Below are positions 8,766 to 47,518 of a stretch of DNA of 64,000 nucleotides, piece by piece. A program made the translations under genes and the position numbers. The DNA is from Thermodesulfobacteriota bacterium (GTDB taxonomy: Bacteria > Desulfobacterota_D > UBA1144 > Nemesobacterales > JAJCZQ01): the NCBI GenBank assembly GCA_965203965.1, contig CBDBDR010000017.1, forward strand, positions 448,001-512,000, in the 5' to 3' direction. The first letter of the stretch is position 1. Every line of letters begins with the position of its first letter. The notes under the pieces are model-generated. The model did no database searches. It saw nothing but the letters and a program-made list of their open reading frames with translations, and was not told where the DNA came from.

Positions 8766-8954
8766 TTAATGAAGCATTTCTTCATGTTTTTCTTCCAACT
8801 CATCATCTTCATTATCAAGATCGTCTTCATCAAACTCATCATCTTCATCCCAATTTTCATCATCAAGATCATCTTCATCGGAAAACTCGTCATCTTCAAA
8901 CTCGTCTTCAATTCTTAGTTCATTATCTTGAAAAACATTAAATTTGTATGACAC
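8766..8954 (-). CDS. Small, extremely acidic (D/E-rich) hypothetical protein
   Basis: 62-aa ORF dominated by EDEFEDDEFSDEDDLDDENWDEDD low-complexity repeats; start uncertain. Confidence 0.45.
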   Translation of the reverse strand: MSYKFNVFQDNELRIEDEFEDDEFSDEDDLDDENWDEDDEFDEDDLDNEDDELEEKHEEMLH

Positions 8955-14464: not shown

Positions 14465-14760
14465 ATTTCAAGAATTATTAGAATCAAACCACTCATTAAA
14501 TTCTGACGGAAACAACTCTAACATTTTTTCACAAGGCATGTTGTAACCACACCTCGGGCACGTAAGCGTTGACCGCAGAGGTAACAAGGTCTGCAACGAT
14601 CTTTGTCTCTCCAAGCCTGACGGCAATGCTATACCTTCTGGAAAGACAAATTTCCCCAAAACGCTACATTTTCCCCAAATTTCTACTTTCGTAGATGAAA
14701 AATTTGACGCCACCGAAAAATGTGGCAAACGACGGGTTGAGAGTAGAGGTAGAGTTTATC

Positions 14761-14880
14761 TCCCCTTGAAATCCCCTTTCCCTCCTCGCTGGGTTTTCCC
14801 AAGGGGAGGGATTTTTTTAACCACCTTTTTTTAACCACCCCGTCAGGCTTTGCCTGCCACCCCTCCATAGGAGGGGAATT
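14761..14880. repeat. GC-rich palindromic (REP-like) element cluster
   Basis: Nested inverted repeats AAATCCC...GGGATTT, CAGGC-TTT-GCCTG, CCCCTCC-ATA-GGAGGGG; tandem TTTTTTAACCACC; related copy at 40430-40475. Confidence 0.6.
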
Positions 14881-14983
14881 ATTTAAACATCTACTCTTAT
14901 TTGCAACTGCTAACTCACTGTATTTATTGCATTTTTTGCTATATTTCCATTTAAGACAAATGCGTTGCGCTTAAAGAGGGGAA

Positions 14984-14995
14984 TTGACAAATAGC
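14984..14995 (+). repeat. 12-bp direct repeat TTGACAAATAGC (left copy)
   Basis: Identical to 15975-15986; abuts the stop codon of ORF 14995-15363. Confidence 0.75.
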
Positions 14996-15363
14996 TATCT
15001 GTCTGCAAATAACCCCTTGATAATAACCATAGACAGTGCAATCACGTTAATAGTAGTTGCTGCCAACAAGGTTATGAGGACAGTGTTGGAATAAAGGGCT
15101 ATGGAGTAGAAGAAATTGGACGCTCCAACAAATATTAACACCACTGCTATAAAAATAAGCCAACTGGAAACTATCCGCCTTGCCCAAGTTGCAAACTTTC
15201 CTCGCAACTCCTGCTTTTGCTTTTCCGCATTGATCTGGAGGTTTTGCAAGCGATCTTGCAGTATGGTTTGCTCATCAGGCGAGTCTTTACTCGGTTGTTT
15301 CTGAGCCTTTTCAAGTGTTTCAGGAAATCCTGTTCTTTGTTCCCCGCTCTTGCACATACCCAA
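14995..15363 (-). CDS. Two-TM membrane protein, putative toxin partner of the Panacea antitoxin
   Basis: Starts immediately after the Panacea stop; coiled N-terminus plus two hydrophobic helices; toxin role is inferred from context. Confidence 0.6.
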   Translation of the reverse strand: MGMCKSGEQRTGFPETLEKAQKQPSKDSPDEQTILQDRLQNLQINAEKQKQELRGKFATWARRIVSSWLIFIAVVLIFVGASNFFYSIALYSNTVLITLLAATTINVIALSMVIIKGLFADR

Positions 15364-15870
15364 TCAATTCAAACTGTCATACAGATCTGTATAATATTTC
15401 CGAATGAGATTTTTTGGTATTTCTTTGCTAGGAGTGTTATCAAAGGTGTCCCACCACGGAGTGCCTTTTTTGTGTGTTAGGTCAATCAGATGTTCAGCCG
15501 GAGCGTGTTTATACGCATTCCAAATGGTTTTCAAAATTCCAAGCACTTCTTTGTCAGTAATATCTTCTTCCGTTGGTTTTTTGGGCTCTTCGTTACCAAA
15601 CGGATCATACAAAGTCGCACGACGATCTTTTATAGGGCCTTTGCCATATTCCCGAAGCTCATAATAAAGCGAAGGAACCACCGGACCATATCTCCAAGCC
15701 TCTATGCGATCAGTAAACAGATCGGCATTCTTAGCTACACTGAACCAACCGAAAAAGATGTAGACCAATTTGAGAAGTTTCAAAATACTTACGTCTGTAA
15801 CATTGTCCTTCTCTGCATTGTCCAAAATAAAGTTAGCTATGTGTGCTGCTTTGTATGTGCTTTGCTGCAC
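15364..15870 (-). CDS. Panacea-domain (DUF4065/SocA/GepA-like) antitoxin
   Basis: IANFIL, LKLLKLVY, LFTDRIEAWRYGPVVPSLY, LIDLTHKKGTPW; AGGAGG RBS before the GTG start. Confidence 0.9.
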   Translation of the reverse strand: MQQSTYKAAHIANFILDNAEKDNVTDVSILKLLKLVYIFFGWFSVAKNADLFTDRIEAWRYGPVVPSLYYELREYGKGPIKDRRATLYDPFGNEEPKKPTEEDITDKEVLGILKTIWNAYKHAPAEHLIDLTHKKGTPWWDTFDNTPSKEIPKNLIRKYYTDLYDSLN

Positions 15871-15908
15871 AGGACACCTCCTGTCGTTTTTTTGGAGTAA
15901 TGTTTTAA

Positions 15909-15938
15909 ACTATAACACTATACCAACCAACTTGACAA
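15909..15938 (-). promoter_or_regulatory. Putative promoter of the Panacea operon
   Basis: Minus strand TTGTCA-N18-TATAGT with an extended -10 TGn. Confidence 0.45.
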
Positions 15939-15974
15939 CTACTATTGGTCAGGATCCCTGTCAGGGCAGAGTGG

Positions 15975-16003
15975 TTGACAAATAGCACTACACGTGCTAT
16001 ATA
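15975..16003 (+). promoter_or_regulatory. Sigma70 promoter of ncRNA-1 with a palindromic operator; includes the right 12-bp direct repeat
   Basis: TTGACA-N17-TATATA with TGn; perfect ATAGCAC-N5-GTGCTAT palindrome at 15982-16000. Confidence 0.7.
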
Positions 16004-16008
16004 AACAG

Positions 16009-16146
16009 TTAAGAGCATGTGGCAAATTCTCCATGCGAAACGCTGAGGATATTCCTGATATCCAAAGGTTAGCCACAGGATGGTCAGAAAGGGTTGTTGG
16101 AGTCCTTAAGCATGTTCAAGGGAGCGTCAGGGGTTCCCTTTTTTTT
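16009..16146 (+). ncRNA. Unnamed structured ncRNA-1, convergent with the MuF-PBECR gene
   Basis: Own promoter and terminator; helices covary with the paralog at 18095-18232; loop UCCUG is complementary to loop CAGGA. Confidence 0.75.
16118..16146 (+). terminator. Intrinsic terminator of ncRNA-1, overlapping the MuF stop codon
   Basis: AAGGGAGC-GTCAGGG-GTTCCCTT followed by a T tract. Confidence 0.8.
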
Positions 16147-17347
16147 GTAGCTTTTCTTGTGCCAGAAGTTCTTTCACTTGAGACGTTCTTATCCGATGGA
16201 TGGTTGTCAAAAAGATTTCGTCAGTCCCCTCTACAGATTTCACGATCGCTCTTAAAAACTTTTTTGGCTGGTATTCCTGTATGAAGTGCGACTCTACTCC
16301 TTTTGTTGCAACAATCGCTTGTGAGTTATCTATGATCTTCTGCGTATCGGCGTAGTTTGCGATCTTGATATTTGAATGCTTGTCAAGATGACCTACAAGC
16401 GTTTCCTGAGATAGAAGCACTGTATGCCCGTTAGTTTTAAGGGCTTTGGAGACCTCTGCGGGGACGACCCCAACTGGAAAGAACTCTTCGCTTTTTTTGT
16501 TCACCCATATTTTAAATTGATCTCCAGACAACATATCCTGCGTAAAATCACGAGCGATACGTGGCGTGAAATTGTTTAAGTTTGGCAACCAAGACCGTTT
16601 GCCCGGATTAAAGCCAAAGCTGGCGTGTGGCAACACTACTTTGCCAGTGGGAAGGCGGTATCCGGTAAGGTTTACGCTCTTTGGGTTGTTGACAGTGCCA
16701 ATTTCAACCTTGCTTCTCACCAGCTTGCCTTTTGAACTGCTAACCTCCCATTCTCTGCTGGTTATCTGTTGTTGGGTCAACGTCCGTTTGTTGCAACGGC
16801 AGTTGTAATCCAGCGGTGGAGTAAAAGTGTTCCAGAATGGATCATCAACCGGAAATATACTGCCGTCAAGCTCAGCGTGGCTTTCCCGAGTGCGGGAATC
16901 ATGCAGTGCGATAAATTGAGCAAAAGGACGGCGCTTTTTATTTTTCTCAATAGACGCTTCCCTGCCCGCAGCATAGGCAGATAGTAGGTTTGTGCGATAG
17001 ATAGTTTTTAAGCGGTGCGGGGGGAACTTCTGAGGAATTACCTCTCCTGTTTTTTTGTTTATTTTTTCTGCACCTTTCCAGCCTCCCTTTTGTAGCTTTG
17101 GTTCAAGTTCTTTTTTGAACTGCTGAAAAGTCTTGCCATCGGTCAAAGCCCCGTCAAGTGCCGTTTTTATATCTTTTAAAAGGTCTATTTTTGCGACATT
17201 TGCAACGGTGAAAACGTGTGCATGAGCTTCGCCAAGCACCTCACGCCAACCACGCGAGACCTTGTATTGCCTTGATCTTAGGTAATTGACTGCCTGCTCG
17301 GGCGTCCTTCTAAACATAAAGTTCAGGTTAATTGTTTTCGGGGGCAT
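16127..17347 (-). CDS. Phage Mu gpF (MuF) head morphogenesis protein with a C-terminal PBECR2-like putative RNase/toxin domain
   Basis: MuF motifs RLKTIYRTNLLSAYAAGR, DSRTRESHAELDG, DDPFWNTFTPPLDYNCRC, FGFNPG; C-terminal FPVGVV...LLSQETL...H..KH...Y...AIVK...EIFLTTIHR (PBECR2 assignment by eye). Confidence 0.85.
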   Translation of the reverse strand: MPPKTINLNFMFRRTPEQAVNYLRSRQYKVSRGWREVLGEAHAHVFTVANVAKIDLLKDIKTALDGALTDGKTFQQFKKELEPKLQKGGWKGAEKINKKTGEVIPQKFPPHRLKTIYRTNLLSAYAAGREASIEKNKKRRPFAQFIALHDSRTRESHAELDGSIFPVDDPFWNTFTPPLDYNCRCNKRTLTQQQITSREWEVSSSKGKLVRSKVEIGTVNNPKSVNLTGYRLPTGKVVLPHASFGFNPGKRSWLPNLNNFTPRIARDFTQDMLSGDQFKIWVNKKSEEFFPVGVVPAEVSKALKTNGHTVLLSQETLVGHLDKHSNIKIANYADTQKIIDNSQAIVATKGVESHFIQEYQPKKFLRAIVKSVEGTDEIFLTTIHRIRTSQVKELLAQEKLQKKGNP

Positions 17348-17573
17348 TGCTTATCTCTCCCCATAGGCGGGCTATTACCCATTTGTTTTCAAGGCTTTTT
17401 TAAGAGGAATTCAAACGGGGAAACGACCCTTGTTAAACACCGATTAAACCCTATTTAAAGTGTCAATAATTCCACCAAAAGATCTCTTTAATCCGAACTT
17501 CTCCGGGATTCATAGTGTGAACTTATATACTGTTTGCAGTTGATTATTTCTTTGTTCTAATTACGCAATTTGC

Positions 17574-17666
17574 AAAAAGCTCATCAACCCAAAAACGGGC
17601 GAGATAACAAAGTTTGCACCGCACTGCCTAAAAACTATTTATCATACAAATCTACTATCTGCCTAA
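17574..17666 (+). pseudogene. Remnant of the N-terminal MuF region of the second paralog
   Basis: Translates to KKLINPKTGEITKFAPHCLKTIYHTNLLSA*, matching EKINKKTGEVIPQKFPPHRLKTIYRTNLLSAY in the intact copy. Confidence 0.8.
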
Positions 17667-17667
17667 C

Positions 17668-18096
17668 TTGAATTTTTACGAACCTGTCAGCGCCCGCCAC
17701 TATGTGCAGGAGCTGGTCAATAGTAAGGTTTTTACGCGCTGGATGAGTAAAAAAAGTCAAGAGTTCTTTCCCGTTGGAATTGTCCCCGCAGGGGTCTCAA
17801 AAGCCCTTAACACCAATGGGCATAAGTTGCTTTTGTCTCAGGAGACCTTGATCACCCACCTTAAAAAACACTCAGATATTAAACTTGCAAACTATGCTGC
17901 TATGCAGAAGATCATAGATAATTCGCAGGCAGTGTTAAGAGGGCGAGAAGTGCATTTTATACAGCAAGATCAACCCGGAAAGTTCTTAAGGGCAGTTGTA
18001 AAAGCTGTAGATGATTCGGATGAGATTTTTTTAAATACAATCCACAGAATGCGGGCATCTCAAGCAGAGGAATTTCTATCACAAGAAAAACTATAA
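17668..18096 (+). CDS. Orphan PBECR2-like domain, paralog of the MuF C-terminus (internally deleted gene; expression uncertain)
   Basis: About 64% identical (87/136, manual count) to residues 265-400 of 16127-17347; TTG start with no clear RBS. Confidence 0.75.
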   Translation: MNFYEPVSARHYVQELVNSKVFTRWMSKKSQEFFPVGIVPAGVSKALNTNGHKLLLSQETLITHLKKHSDIKLANYAAMQKIIDNSQAVLRGREVHFIQQDQPGKFLRAVVKAVDDSDEIFLNTIHRMRASQAEEFLSQEKL

Positions 18097-18232
18097 AAAA
18101 AGGGAGCCCCTGACGCTCCCTTGTGTGTGCGAGGGGGACTCGGGTAACTCCCCTACAGAACTTTTTTGGGCATCAGGCATGCCCTCAGCAATCGCGCCGA
18201 GCAGTTTTTGCCGCAACACACTTAAAATGCTT
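18095..18232 (-). ncRNA. Unnamed structured ncRNA-2, convergent with the orphan PBECR gene
   Basis: Same architecture as ncRNA-1 with compensatory substitutions; ends in AAGGGAGC-GTCAGGG-GCTCCCTT plus a T tract. Confidence 0.75.
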
Positions 18233-18238
18233 TTCATA

Positions 18239-18267
18239 TTTATAATAAAAATATAGTATTGTGTCAA
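18239..18267 (-). promoter_or_regulatory. Sigma70 promoter of ncRNA-2
   Basis: Minus strand TTGACA-N17-TATAAA, in an equivalent position to the ncRNA-1 promoter. Confidence 0.7.
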
Positions 18268-18319
18268 TCAAACGTTTATGTTTAATGATTTAGTTTACAT
18301 AATTTCAAGGAGAAAAAAT

Positions 18320-18778
18320 ATGTCCGAAAAATTAAAAGTAGGGGACACTGTACCTGATTTTGAGGCTGAAACTTACGGTGGTGAAGTAGTAAAGTTGAGT
18401 GATTATTACAAGGAGAAAATTGTAGCTCTTTACTTTTATCCTAAAGACAATACTCCCGGATGCACAAAAGAAGCCTGCTCTATAAGGGATGGAATGGATG
18501 AGCTTTCAGAGCTGGGAATTCAAGTTGTTGGAGTAAGCACAGACGGTGTGAAATCACATGAAAATTTTAGGAAAAAATACAATTTGAATTTTCCTCTGGT
18601 GAGCGATAAAAGCAAAACTATTATAAATATGTATGGTGTAAAAAGTGCGTTTGGGTCAGCAAAAAGACAAACATTCCTGATAGACGGCAAAGGCATAATA
18701 CAACACATTTGGAACAAGGTTAAGACGGCTCAACATGCAGATGAAATCGCAGATAAGGTCAGGGAGTTGAATCTTTAG
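18320..18778 (+). CDS. bcp: Peroxiredoxin Bcp/PrxQ
   Basis: YFYPKDNTPGCTKEAC, RQTFLID; AAGGAG RBS before ATG 18320. Confidence 0.9.
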   Translation: MSEKLKVGDTVPDFEAETYGGEVVKLSDYYKEKIVALYFYPKDNTPGCTKEACSIRDGMDELSELGIQVVGVSTDGVKSHENFRKKYNLNFPLVSDKSKTIINMYGVKSAFGSAKRQTFLIDGKGIIQHIWNKVKTAQHADEIADKVRELNL

Positions 18779-47196: not shown

Positions 47197-47282
47197 GAAG
47201 TAACCTGTTCATTAACAAAAGACCTGTTTCATTTTAGAACATAGAGCAGCAAATGAGAACAACCTGATGAGCGAGATAGTTA

Positions 47283-47356
47283 CGTCCCCGAGAGGATTCG
47301 AACCTCCGACCCCAAGATTAGGAATCTTGTGCTCTATCCTGCTGAGCTACGGGGAC
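47283..47356 (-). tRNA. tRNA-Arg(CCT)
   Basis: GTCCCCG acceptor stem, CAAGA-TTCCTAA-TCTTG anticodon arm, GGTTCGAATCC; CCA not encoded. Confidence 0.95.
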
Positions 47357-47435
47357 ATCCGACAATGAAAAACATTTTAGCGGATTATACATGAATTTTA
47401 AAATGACTGATCAAGTGGTTACAATTTGTTACAAA

Positions 47436-47518
47436 GCCGAAGTGGTGGAATTGGTAGACACGCTATCTTGAGGGGGTAGTGCCCGTAGGGCGTGGGAGTT
47501 CGAGTCTCCCCTTCGGCA
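47436..47518 (+). tRNA. tRNA-Leu(GAG)
   Basis: GCCGAAG acceptor stem, CTATC-TTGAGGG-GGTAG anticodon arm, long variable arm, GTTCGAGTC; CCA not encoded. Confidence 0.95.

Follow-up and report, generated by a model that had tools for sequence, protein, structure and literature searches.

A pseudoknotted small RNA beside a broken MuF gene: a very likely member of a structured RNA family that recurs tail-to-tail with unrelated accessory genes

Introduction

Several described RNA systems come close to the element examined here, a small RNA that we call nc2. It is encoded, together with its promoter, at positions 18267-18095 on the minus strand of a 64,000-nucleotide (nt) stretch of a Thermodesulfobacteriota genome (assembly GCA_965203965.1, contig CBDBDR010000017.1, positions 448,001 to 512,000 of the forward strand); this whole stretch is called the window below. 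nc2 lies tail-to-tail with a nuclease-like reading frame next to the remnant of a phage MuF gene, and a paralogous RNA, nc1, lies in the same way beside a full-length MuF gene. In type I toxin-antitoxin systems such as txpA/RatA and bsrG/SR4 of Bacillus subtilis, the antisense RNA has its own promoter and overlaps a convergent gene at the 3' end, the terminator regions overlap, and first contact is made by loop-loop kissing. A type I antitoxin RNA is complementary to, and co-evolves with, one gene for a small membrane-peptide toxin. The RNAs of type III systems (ToxI/ToxN, CptIN, TenpIN) are tandem repeats placed upstream of the toxin gene on the same strand and are processed by the toxin. Antisense and other non-coding transcripts can also be controlled by riboswitches, as for the Listeria B12 riboswitch with AspocR and the Clostridium acetobutylicum S-box antisense to the ubiG operon, and an aptamer can be embedded in a terminator, as in the HMP-PP thiS riboswitch. 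The raiA motif is an orphan structured bacterial RNA with its own promoter and terminator.

On the protein side, the passages of Iyer et al. 2017 (PMC5512222) that treat these domains describe MuF-PBECR fusions, state that phage Mu gp30 carries a MuF-C domain, and characterize the BECR fold by a His in the N-terminal helix region and a C-terminal Ser/Thr. The part of Jamet et al. 2017 (PMC5576092) on gene context reports a small downstream open reading frame (ORF), presumed to encode a protein immunity factor, for 89.4% of 191 MuF toxin genes. An earlier interpretation of the window, made from its letters alone (the sequence-only reading), had offered two explanations for an intact nc2 beside a broken MuF gene: either RNA and nuclease are kept by selection as a functional or orphan-immunity pair, or the MuF deletion is recent. 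Here we report that nc2 resembles each of these systems in part, and that its relatives in other genomes lie beside genes other than MuF.

Results

nc2 and its structural elements

We regard it as close to certain, from comparison of homologous sequences, that nc2 is a genuine member of a structured RNA family. The family is one of previously uncatalogued, self-contained small RNAs of ~125 nt, and every member has its own promoter, a closing helix P1, a P4 hairpin with the loop NCCUG(A), and an H-type pseudoknot formed by P2 with the P5 loop. At nc2 the order on the minus strand is promoter, short leader ending in UUUAAG, structured segment and terminator hairpin, with transcription probably starting close to 18232. 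The elements are:

18239..18267, minus strand: nc2 promoter, read from the sequence; -35 TTGACA at 18267-18262, 17-nt spacer, -10 TATAAA at 18244-18239
18095..18232, minus strand: nc2 RNA, ~127-138 nt; covariance model R1 matches 18226-18095 (123.4 bits, E 1e-25)
18221-18212 / 18131-18123, minus strand: P1, closing helix of 9 pairs with U18215 bulged, enclosing the pseudoknot core
18201-18197 (CUCGG) / 18143-18139 (CCGAG), minus strand: P2, 3' strand within the P5 loop
18184-18179 / 18173-18168, minus strand: P4 hairpin, GGGCAU-GCCUG-AUGCCC; its conserved loop, NCCUG, reads CCUGA when the closing A is included
18153-18149 (GGGGA) / 18138-18134 (UCCCC), minus strand: P5 as revised here, supported by covariation
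18121-18115 / 18107-18101, minus strand: P6, intrinsic terminator, AGGGAGC-GUCAGGG-GCUCCCU followed by seven U; loop GUCAGGG at 18114-18108, U-run at 18101-18095

The promoter, P1, P2, P4 and the terminator stand, to the base, where the sequence-only reading had placed them, and covariation supports the four helices among them. Pairs are intact in nc2 at 9/9 positions of P1, 5/5 of P2, 6/6 of P4, 5/7 of P5 and 7/7 of P6. A terminator scanner reported a Rho-independent terminator on the minus strand at 18122-18100 (8-pair stem, 7-nt loop, TTTTTTT); it is unidirectional, as no T-run follows the hairpin on the opposite strand. The consensus promoter scanner returned at nc2 only an overlapping variant, TTGATT/TATTAT at 18271-18242, and missed obvious sites elsewhere as well. 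Folding energy alone is weak evidence for an RNA, since that of nc2 (-54.8 kcal/mol, z = -2.78) was equalled by 2/200 shuffles and that of nc1 (z = -1.35) by 19/200.

The start codon of the host bcp (AhpC/TSA) gene, at 18278, is merely 11 nt from the nc2 -35 box; therefore the bcp promoter would lie inside and antisense to nc2, or bcp would be read through from the nuclease frame. A 14-nt tandem repeat at 18275-18305 lies outside nc2.

Homologues in other genomes

Relatives were sought with a pattern of the 17 bases common to nc1 and nc2 around P4, scanned over 185,579 species-representative genomes, a set to which the source genome does not belong. The scan gave 63 loci, against ~70 by a rough chance estimate. 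A covariance model, R1, was built from nc1, nc2 and three of these loci (L016, L041 and L050), whose likeness to the window copies extends well beyond the pattern; the five model-building sequences score 103-140 bits, by construction, and the nc2 match, itself one of the five, spans model positions 1-128. R1 also found two loci that had no part in building it, L059 with 75.4 bits and L003 with 63.8 bits, while the remaining 58 pattern loci scored at most 19.6 bits. Both had been passed over by a simple hairpin filter applied to the 63 loci and were recovered by the covariance model; seven low-scoring pattern loci inspected by eye were unrelated. The family thus has seven members:

nc1, nc2: the window
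L003, L016, L041: metagenome-assembled genomes (MAGs) labelled Spirochaetia
L050: a Competibacteraceae MAG
L059: a Thermodesulfobacteriota MAG

Members outside the model, together with covariation, argue that the RNA gene is real, and the five homologues are the decisive support. Conservation in other genomes, which the sequence-only reading had named as a check, was borne out by five further members, with structure kept by compensatory changes. The L016 promoter has TATAAT at the same place as the nc2 -10 element. In the gaps of L003, L041, L050 and L059 the promoter and terminator scanner gave no call; since even the obvious terminator of L041 escaped it, its silence there is uninformative.

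Existing catalogues gave no match to the RNA. With Rfam 15, the whole window at gathering thresholds yielded only a tRNA, the interval 15800-18400 at E<=10 yielded three weak matches, none of them on the RNA, and L016, L041 and L050 at E<=10 yielded no match on the RNA. blastn of nc2 and the L016, L050 and L059 RNAs against phage and plasmid collections returned nothing, or short AT-rich chance matches. We found in the literature no description of this RNA motif and no RNA partner of MuF/PBECR proteins, the motif tables of a 2026 preprint on noncoding sequence space lying outside this coverage.

Covariation and the pseudoknotted core

In the seven-sequence alignment, which was fitted to the covariance model and so favours the model structure, 90.7% of cells pair, compared with 36-57% when the partners are slid by 1-3 columns, and 16/33 pairs have changed on both sides, compared with 1-6 when slid. 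On none of five measures did any of 500 shuffles of this alignment reach the observed value. RNAalifold, given five sequences, recovered P1, P4, the new P5 and the terminator, with 12/33 pairs compensatory. A manual register that includes P2 has 213/231 canonical cells and 20/34 compensatory positions, distributed over the helices as follows:

P1: canonical 62/63; compensatory at 4 of 9 positions
P2: canonical 32/35; compensatory at 3 of 5 positions
P4: canonical 37/42; compensatory at 3 positions
P5: canonical 42/49; compensatory at 4 of 7 positions
P6: canonical 40/42; compensatory at 6 of 7 positions

In P4 the evidence is confined to the inner pairs, since the search pattern fixed both outer pairs and CCUGA in the five outside members. 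The 3' strand of P2 sits within the P5 loop, where it abuts the P5 3' strand; this makes the core an H-type pseudoknot, which P1 closes. Sequence conservation is high in the single-stranded junctions, which read GCAAAAU following P1, GCUGA before P4 and AAAGGUUCCGU after P4.

Three candidate elements were rejected. The sequence-only reading had drawn P5 at 18162-18146, with a kissing interaction between CCUG and UAGG loops; in the six sequences in which this helix can be placed in the same register, 27/36 cells pair, the three inner pairs hardly vary, the outer ones fail and nothing covaries. This helix competes with the revised P5 at 18153-18149 / 18138-18134, which supersedes it, and would at most be a transient alternative. 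P3, a 3-bp hairpin proposed by RNAalifold, is not counted; it never covaries and would have a 2-nt loop in L016. A small ORF, MRQNL..AEGxP(D/E)xQ, stops 10 codons after its AUG in nc1, is frameshifted in L041 and has no in-frame start codon in L050.

A terminator loop complementary to the P4 loop

P6 is present in 6/7 members and forms a strong terminator with at least five U in four of them, the U tail being weaker in L059 and L050. Its stem differs by lineage (GGGAGC/GYUCCC in the window, GGGGGCU/AGCCCC in L016 and L041, GAGACGG/CCGCCUC in L050, GAGGUG/CACCUC in L059) and its loop follows the consensus (G/A)UCAGG(G/C), with UCAGG in five members and CCAGG in L059. In all six members that have P6, this loop is complementary to the P4 loop CCUGA over a run of 4-6 nt, and in L050 the sixth loop-loop pair arises through a G-to-C change in the P6 loop. 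The conservation of the P6 loop is not a search artefact, since P6 lies outside the search pattern.

By inspection, the P5 3' strand can also pair with the 5' strand of the terminator, over 9 pairs in L041 and L016 and over 4-5 in nc1, nc2, L050 and L059. The minimum-energy fold of L016 uses this alternative pairing.

nc1 and the likeness of the two window copies

The sequence-only reading had called nc2 an intact, diverged paralog of nc1, and we agree: the two are identical at 83/143 aligned columns and the helices of nc2 are intact.

16008..16146, plus strand: nc1, paralogous RNA; promoter TTGACA at 15975-15980, 17-nt spacer, TATATA at 15998-16003; R1 score 102.9 bits

nc1 has an extra 10-nt hairpin between P4 and P5. 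A covariance search with R1 found no third copy within the 64-kb window. The near-identity of the terminators, another point of the earlier description, also holds. A 24-nt terminator string occurs twice in the 64 kb, at 18097-18120 on the minus strand with 0 mismatches and at 16120-16143 on the plus strand with 1 mismatch (chance expectation 0.00, from 100 shuffles), and the sole difference is at P6 position 2, G-U in nc1 and G-C in nc2. The terminators are identical at 28/29 positions, while the other parts of the RNA are 58% identical and synonymous sites of the adjacent genes are saturated, a disparity that the P4-P6 loop constraint explains.

The P6-loop heptamer (GTCAGG) occurs twice as a direct repeat at 15951-15969 on the plus strand, just 5' of the nc1 promoter (GGTCAGGATCCCTGTCAGGGC). 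These repeats could be an operator, or what is left of a further 3' hairpin.

The family recurs away from MuF nuclease genes

For each of the seven RNAs, the gene that faces its terminator is listed below; overlaps are those of RNA and ORF and are counted on ORFs, not on mRNA 3' ends.

nc1: C-terminal domain of the full-length MuF gene (MuF-CT1), convergent, overlap 20 nt
nc2: second copy of that domain (CT2), convergent, overlap 2 nt
L016: type ISP/IIG restriction-modification enzyme, convergent, overlap 19 nt
L041: DUF6794 protein, convergent
L050: SSB, preceded by a D5-type primase, convergent
L059: S-adenosylmethionine (SAM) methyltransferase, convergent
L003: DUF4238 protein, convergent

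At the two window loci, the last 6 codons and the stop of the MuF gene lie within the nc1 terminator, and the stop codon of the second copy covers the last 2 nt of nc2. The neighbouring ORF ends inside or against the terminator in 3/7 members; the gap is 36-186 nt in the other four. All seven RNAs are convergent with their neighbour, which represents six different genes (one-sided (1/2)^6 = 0.016, by our own arithmetic). At none of the seven loci does a co-oriented ORF follow the terminator, as it would behind a riboswitch in a 5' leader; the next gene is convergent. PADLOC recognized at the RNA loci only the restriction enzyme and the methyltransferase, and no known defence system in common.

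The functional pairing of RNA and nuclease proposed by the sequence-only reading was not supported by this comparison. No MuF-C/PBECR frame was found within 2.5 kb of the five outside RNAs, and the MuF-C profile had no hit at E<=1 in the 63 pattern loci. Conversely, no RNA was found at E<=10 in five loci encoding distant MuF-C members (0/5): one Helicobacter prophage, two Mu-like prophages on plasmids and two stand-alone Azospirillum copies. Both Mu-like prophages carry the domain as the C-terminal end of their minor head protein, within a terL-portal-MuF-protease-gpT block and with no immunity gene annotated. These comparisons showed the RNA family to be independent of this nuclease: members occur in at least four other genomes, each time tail-to-tail with an unrelated accessory gene. 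It is likely, then, that nc2 is not a dedicated partner of the neighbouring nuclease. The RNA-nuclease link is real only within the window lineage and is not a property of either family; it is old in that lineage, because synonymous sites between the nuclease copies are saturated (proportion of synonymous differences, pS, 0.757).

L003 and L059 are close relatives; both have kept the RNA together with ~115 nt of upstream sequence, although their flanking genes are different on either side. They also have in common a stretch with rpmE and the end of hemB. The L31 proteins of these loci, one labelled Spirochaetia and the other Thermodesulfobacteriota, are 94% identical; therefore one of the taxonomic labels is probably wrong. 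In L059 a 1.9-kb insertion, with a DUF1295 gene and a 222-aa (amino acid) ORF, separates rpmE from the RNA. The conserved ~115 nt include an inverted repeat, TGATT-N6-AATCA, that spans the putative -35 region and is a possible regulator site.

L003 2352-2467 and L059 2352-2467: conserved stretch of ~115 nt, upstream of the RNA, from the L003/L059 comparison
L003 1972-2295 and L059 56-478: rpmE (L31)/hemB-end stretch common to both loci

The MuF genes and their RNase-like domain

Two MuF genes, one complete and one broken, adjoin the window RNAs.

16127..17347, minus strand: P0001, complete MuF minor head protein of 406 aa that ends in an RNase-like domain; assigned by Pfam, TIGR01641 and PHROG 220
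17583..17663, plus strand: MuF remnant, equal to P0001 residues 96-124 and out of frame with the nuclease frame; tblastn 72% over 29 aa
17668..18096, plus strand: P0002, MuF C-terminal RelE/BrnT-like RNase domain, copy 2; 142 aa from TTG 17668 or 117 aa from ATG 17743

P0001 belongs to Phage_Mu_F (PF04233; E 7e-25, 88.4 bits, cut-off 29.6) and also matches TIGR01641 (65.7 bits, cut-off 39.65) and PHROG 220, 'minor head protein and DNA pilot' (E 1e-80). Its C-terminus scores 16.3 bits (E 0.0096) against PBECR3 (PF18812), below the cut-off of 30; in Pfam, P0002 matched neither PBECR3 nor MuF. P0002 is 63% identical (90/144) to P0001 residues 257-400, and a TAA replaces a Gln codon in copy 2, six codons ahead of the original end. 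No immunity ORF of the kind reported for MuF toxin genes follows either copy: the next same-strand gene is the host bcp gene for copy 2, 182 nt away, and a 168-aa SocA/Panacea gene for copy 1, 256 nt away and past nc1.

A profile search with both copies returned 166 clusters at E<=1e-3 among 1.84 billion representatives; the relatives of the nuclease domain include proteins of ~400 aa (MuF fusions) and of 110-200 aa (stand-alone). S57 is invariant and H68, Y76 and K112 are near-invariant in this family. An AlphaFold2 model of the domain from the family alignment has a predicted local distance difference test (pLDDT) score of 94.6. Its top PDB match is the BrnT RNase toxin 3u97 (E 7.8e-3, probability 1.00, TM-target 0.66), followed by HigB and RelE; no PDB match reached E<=0.001. 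Both copies have the features of a BECR/RelE-like fold, H68 after K67 and T124 in the last strand. The MuF C-terminal domain can be assigned confidently, on the predicted model, to the RelE/BrnT-like RNase fold; family features and predicted fold agree with the account of PBECR/MuF-C in the relevant passages of PMC5512222.

Close relatives are nearly absent: 5.8 billion clusters contain only the protein itself and P0004, a 192-aa protein 55% identical, encoded on a 15-kb contig and beginning at the equivalent of P0001 residue 210. P0004 may, from its sequence, be another truncated MuF-C gene. It is a mosaic, like copy 1 in its N-terminal part and like copy 2 in the middle.

A probably recent deletion behind the broken copy

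That the MuF part beside nc2 is destroyed while the nuclease frame is open, as the sequence-only reading had stated, proved correct. Residues 1-95 and 125-252 of MuF are absent from copy 2 by tblastn, only residues 96-124 being left, and S57, H68, Y76 and K112 are kept in both nuclease copies. These copies are 63% identical in protein and 67% in nucleotides (dN, the nonsynonymous distance, 0.244). The MuF remnant matches the live copy at 72% in protein and at 84% over a 56-nt stretch (inverted repeat I2). The MuF deletion would be recent, because this dead remnant is as similar to the live copy as is the selected nuclease domain, and so has had little time to decay; no particular selection then has to be invoked to account for nc2 being intact and the nuclease frame open. 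Of the two explanations put forward by the sequence-only reading, the recent deletion is the one that fits better.

The two modules form a large imperfect palindrome, with nc1 reading rightward, MuF-CT1 leftward, remnant and CT2 rightward, and nc2 leftward. Two inverted repeats connect the full MuF gene with the remnant and CT2:

16974-17029 and 17610-17665: 56 nt, 84%
16317-16507 and 17740-17930: 191 nt, 76%

By analogy with orphan-cassette or shufflon switches, inversion between the MuF repeats would join the MuF N-terminus to the other nuclease domain. Protein annotation of the neighbours showed no recombinase gene near the window repeats or at any family locus.

Setting in the window

Bordered by a host Fe-S assembly gene on one side and the host bcp gene on the other, a 3.8-kb island (~14468-18270) contains the modules; its G+C content is 0.42-0.49, compared with 0.33-0.39 for the flanking sequence. 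Around the MuF copies the window has no further phage head genes. The island also contains what looks like a Panacea-type toxin-antitoxin pair:

15364-15870, minus strand: SocA/Panacea antitoxin-domain gene; Pfam E 7e-19, NCBIfam SocA_antitoxin 97.5 bits, under the cut-off of 190
14995-15363, minus strand: predicted membrane protein, 122 aa, directly following the SocA/Panacea gene

Elsewhere in the window, positions 8802-8909 hold five overlapping copies of a 42-nt unit with a 15-18-nt period rich in ATC/TTC. This tract lies between the dihydroorotase and ribBA genes and, read from the opposite strand, would specify an acidic repeat rich in Asp/Glu. A divergent tRNA pair lies at 47282-47518, with tRNA-Arg(CCU) on the minus and tRNA-Leu(GAG) on the plus strand.

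Discussion

Our best guess is that nc2 is a self-contained, sensor- or decoy-like RNA whose built-in terminator acts against its convergent neighbour. Taken whole, mechanism included, this account of nc2 as a member of an uncatalogued self-contained RNA family is tentative, and its cis component, control through termination and antisense transcription, we consider possible rather than probable. The conserved junctions and the pseudoknot would form a compact core for binding a conserved partner, which could be a small molecule or a protein whose gene lies elsewhere, and the terminator hairpin P6 would dock on this core through the P4-P6 loop-loop contact. The output would then be made at the terminator: in the folded RNA, transcription would stop exactly at the 3' end of the convergent gene, and in the unfolded RNA, read-through would give an antisense transcript across whichever gene lies opposite. 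Pairing of the P5 3' strand with the P6 5' strand, weak in most members, would be the switch. Even when terminated, the 3' hairpin of the RNA would be complementary to the 3' end of incoming neighbour mRNAs, by 20 nt at nc1, 19 nt at L016 and 2 nt at nc2. Such an RNA would be a gene-agnostic silencer or insulator of accessory genes. On this proposal, the intact state of nc2 would follow from its having no need of MuF and from the recent date of the MuF deletion. The fullest version, a mobile, gene-agnostic RNA switch with a pseudoknotted sensor, a terminator held within the sensing fold (P4 CCUGA to P6 UCAGG) and a constant tail-to-tail position against an accessory or defence gene, in which a ligand or protein decides between termination and antisense read-through, appears unlikely. 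If true, it would turn an opposing nuclease, restriction enzyme or methyltransferase on or off with no sequence relationship to it.

A number of observations weigh against the proposal of a sensor RNA acting on its neighbour. The anti-terminator pairing is strong in only 2/7 members and its register is not fixed, and a constitutive fold would account for the conserved terminator loops no less than a switch. In L003 neither P6 nor a terminator can be recognised, and homology to L059 ends directly after P1. No protein is common to all RNA loci and no conserved partner gene lies within 2.5 kb. The orientation bias is of modest significance and could reflect merely selection against read-through from a strong RNA promoter. 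The long joint travel of RNA and MuF-C in the window lineage shows a behaviour that a neighbour-agnostic model does not predict. The sample itself is also narrow: the seven members stem from only ~4 lineages, and since all five outside members were found through a pattern fixing 17 bases of the P4 region, membership and P4 conservation are biased.

The RNA could instead act in trans, be it a sponge, decoy, ribozyme or scaffold, with a fold that binds a ligand or protein not encoded at the locus, and with neighbour and orientation as by-products of life in variable regions; we hold this to be a possibility on the doubtful side. It would account for fold and junction sequences that are conserved whatever the neighbour, for the RNA's own promoter and terminator, for the lack of a shared neighbour protein, and for the retention of the RNA in L003 and L059 despite changes in both flanks; complementarity between the P4 and P6 loops might just as well serve dimerisation or contact with another RNA. 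It leaves without reason the convergent placement in 7/7 members and the ORF ends inside or against the terminator in 3/7, no candidate partner was found among neighbours within 2.5 kb, and the distribution is sporadic, with only 5 members among 63 exact-core matches in 185,579 species genomes. Quite another kind of alternative would place the signal outside RNA altogether, in a small protein gene or in a DNA site (a recombination site or hotspot boundary) whose hairpins act in DNA. The frame MRQNL..AEGxP(D/E)xQ is open in several members, terminator-side genes differ between close relatives, the end of L003/L059 homology exactly after P1 could mark a recombination breakpoint, and the P6-loop GTCAGG heptamer is found also just upstream of the nc1 promoter. 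Against this stand the failure of that frame in nc1, L041 and L050, helix substitutions that are compensatory and not synonymous, a covarying pseudoknot helix P2 that is not expected of a duplex-DNA site, and the absence of a nearby recombinase gene at any locus; we consider it very improbable.

An antitoxin or immunity factor for the MuF C-terminal RNase, acting as a type III-like decoy or as a type I-like 3'-overlapping antisense RNA, with nc2 kept as an orphan immunity, is the reading that the window taken by itself invites. Both window copies pair one RNA with one RNase-like frame, tail-to-tail and with overlapping 3' ends; the module persisted while synonymous sites became saturated; the domain is confidently RelE/BrnT-like with S57, H68, Y76 and K112 kept; and no small protein-coding frame lies between copy 2 and the host bcp gene. 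As a lead only, the P6 loop GUCAGGG matches 5/7 of the anticodon loop UUGAGGG of the window tRNA-Leu(GAG), and the nc1 P4 loop with its closing pair opened, UUCCUGA, matches 6/7 of UUCCUAA in tRNA-Arg(CCU). Such a likeness would suit a decoy for an anticodon-loop RNase, but it may simply be two sides of one loop-loop contact. The reading is nevertheless improbable when the wider family is taken into account, for 0/5 outside RNA members are near a MuF-C frame, 0/5 distant MuF-C loci have the RNA, and the domain occurs in Mu-like prophages with no annotated immunity partner. The same-strand SocA/Panacea gene downstream of the full MuF gene could be a protein partner, but more likely pairs with the adjacent membrane protein. 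Nor does the RNA look like a type III RNA, being neither a tandem repeat array nor placed upstream in the same orientation, or its neighbour like a type I toxin, since it is no small membrane peptide.

If confirmed, the family would join the few free-standing bacterial RNAs of unassigned role, as a compact pseudoknot RNA with good covariation. Two of its traits are unusual: a conserved terminator loop complementary to an internal hairpin loop, and strict tail-to-tail placement against unrelated accessory genes. Together they raise the question of whether one RNA module can silence or insulate any horizontally acquired gene that lies opposite. An RNA antitoxin of a phage MuF nuclease is an attractive but probably wrong reading, by which the locus would otherwise be taken for a new toxin-antitoxin type.

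Comparison with known systems

Among described systems, the proteins beside the window RNAs resemble the MuF polymorphic toxins and MuF-PBECR proteins, as set out in the parts of PMC5576092 and PMC5512222 cited above, in combining an N-terminal Phage_Mu_F domain with a C-terminal BECR-type RNase-like domain. They differ from the toxins of PMC5576092, in the context that its passages describe, in that the downstream slot is taken by an oppositely oriented RNA gene, that no other head genes are around, and that the PBECR3 match is below cut-off. With the raiA motif the nc2 family shares a complex conserved fold, a free-standing gene and the lack of an obvious partner, but it is much smaller and rare, lies in accessory regions and has no Rfam 15 match.

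Type III systems offer the likeness of a structured, pseudoknot-forming RNA adjoining a gene for a (predicted) RNase-like protein. The nc2 family RNA, however, is a single, convergent unit, and its window neighbour is RelE/BrnT-like and not ToxN-like. Tandem Repeats Finder on 15700-18400 gave only the 14-nt repeat at 18275-18305, and at both copies the RNA lies on the opposite strand, downstream of the protein frame.

Riboswitch-controlled antisense RNAs and terminator-embedded aptamers are similar in having an aptamer-like fold directly before a terminator, no co-oriented downstream gene, and an output that, for the nc2 family, would be antisense transcription into the convergent gene. Compared with riboswitch-controlled antisense RNAs, the nc2 family has an alternative pairing that is weak in 5/7 members, a terminator loop that is conserved and complementary to another loop, and targets that are mutually unrelated.

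As in type I systems, an nc2-family RNA has its own promoter and is transcribed toward the 3' end of an opposite gene. The type I toxins are small hydrophobic peptides of less than ~60 aa, whereas the window neighbours are soluble RNase-like proteins of 142 aa and 406 aa, and those of the family as a whole are enzymes of 112 to >780 aa. The overlap is 0-20 nt, and, in contrast to an antitoxin that co-evolves with one toxin gene, the core of the RNA is conserved while its neighbour changes wholly.

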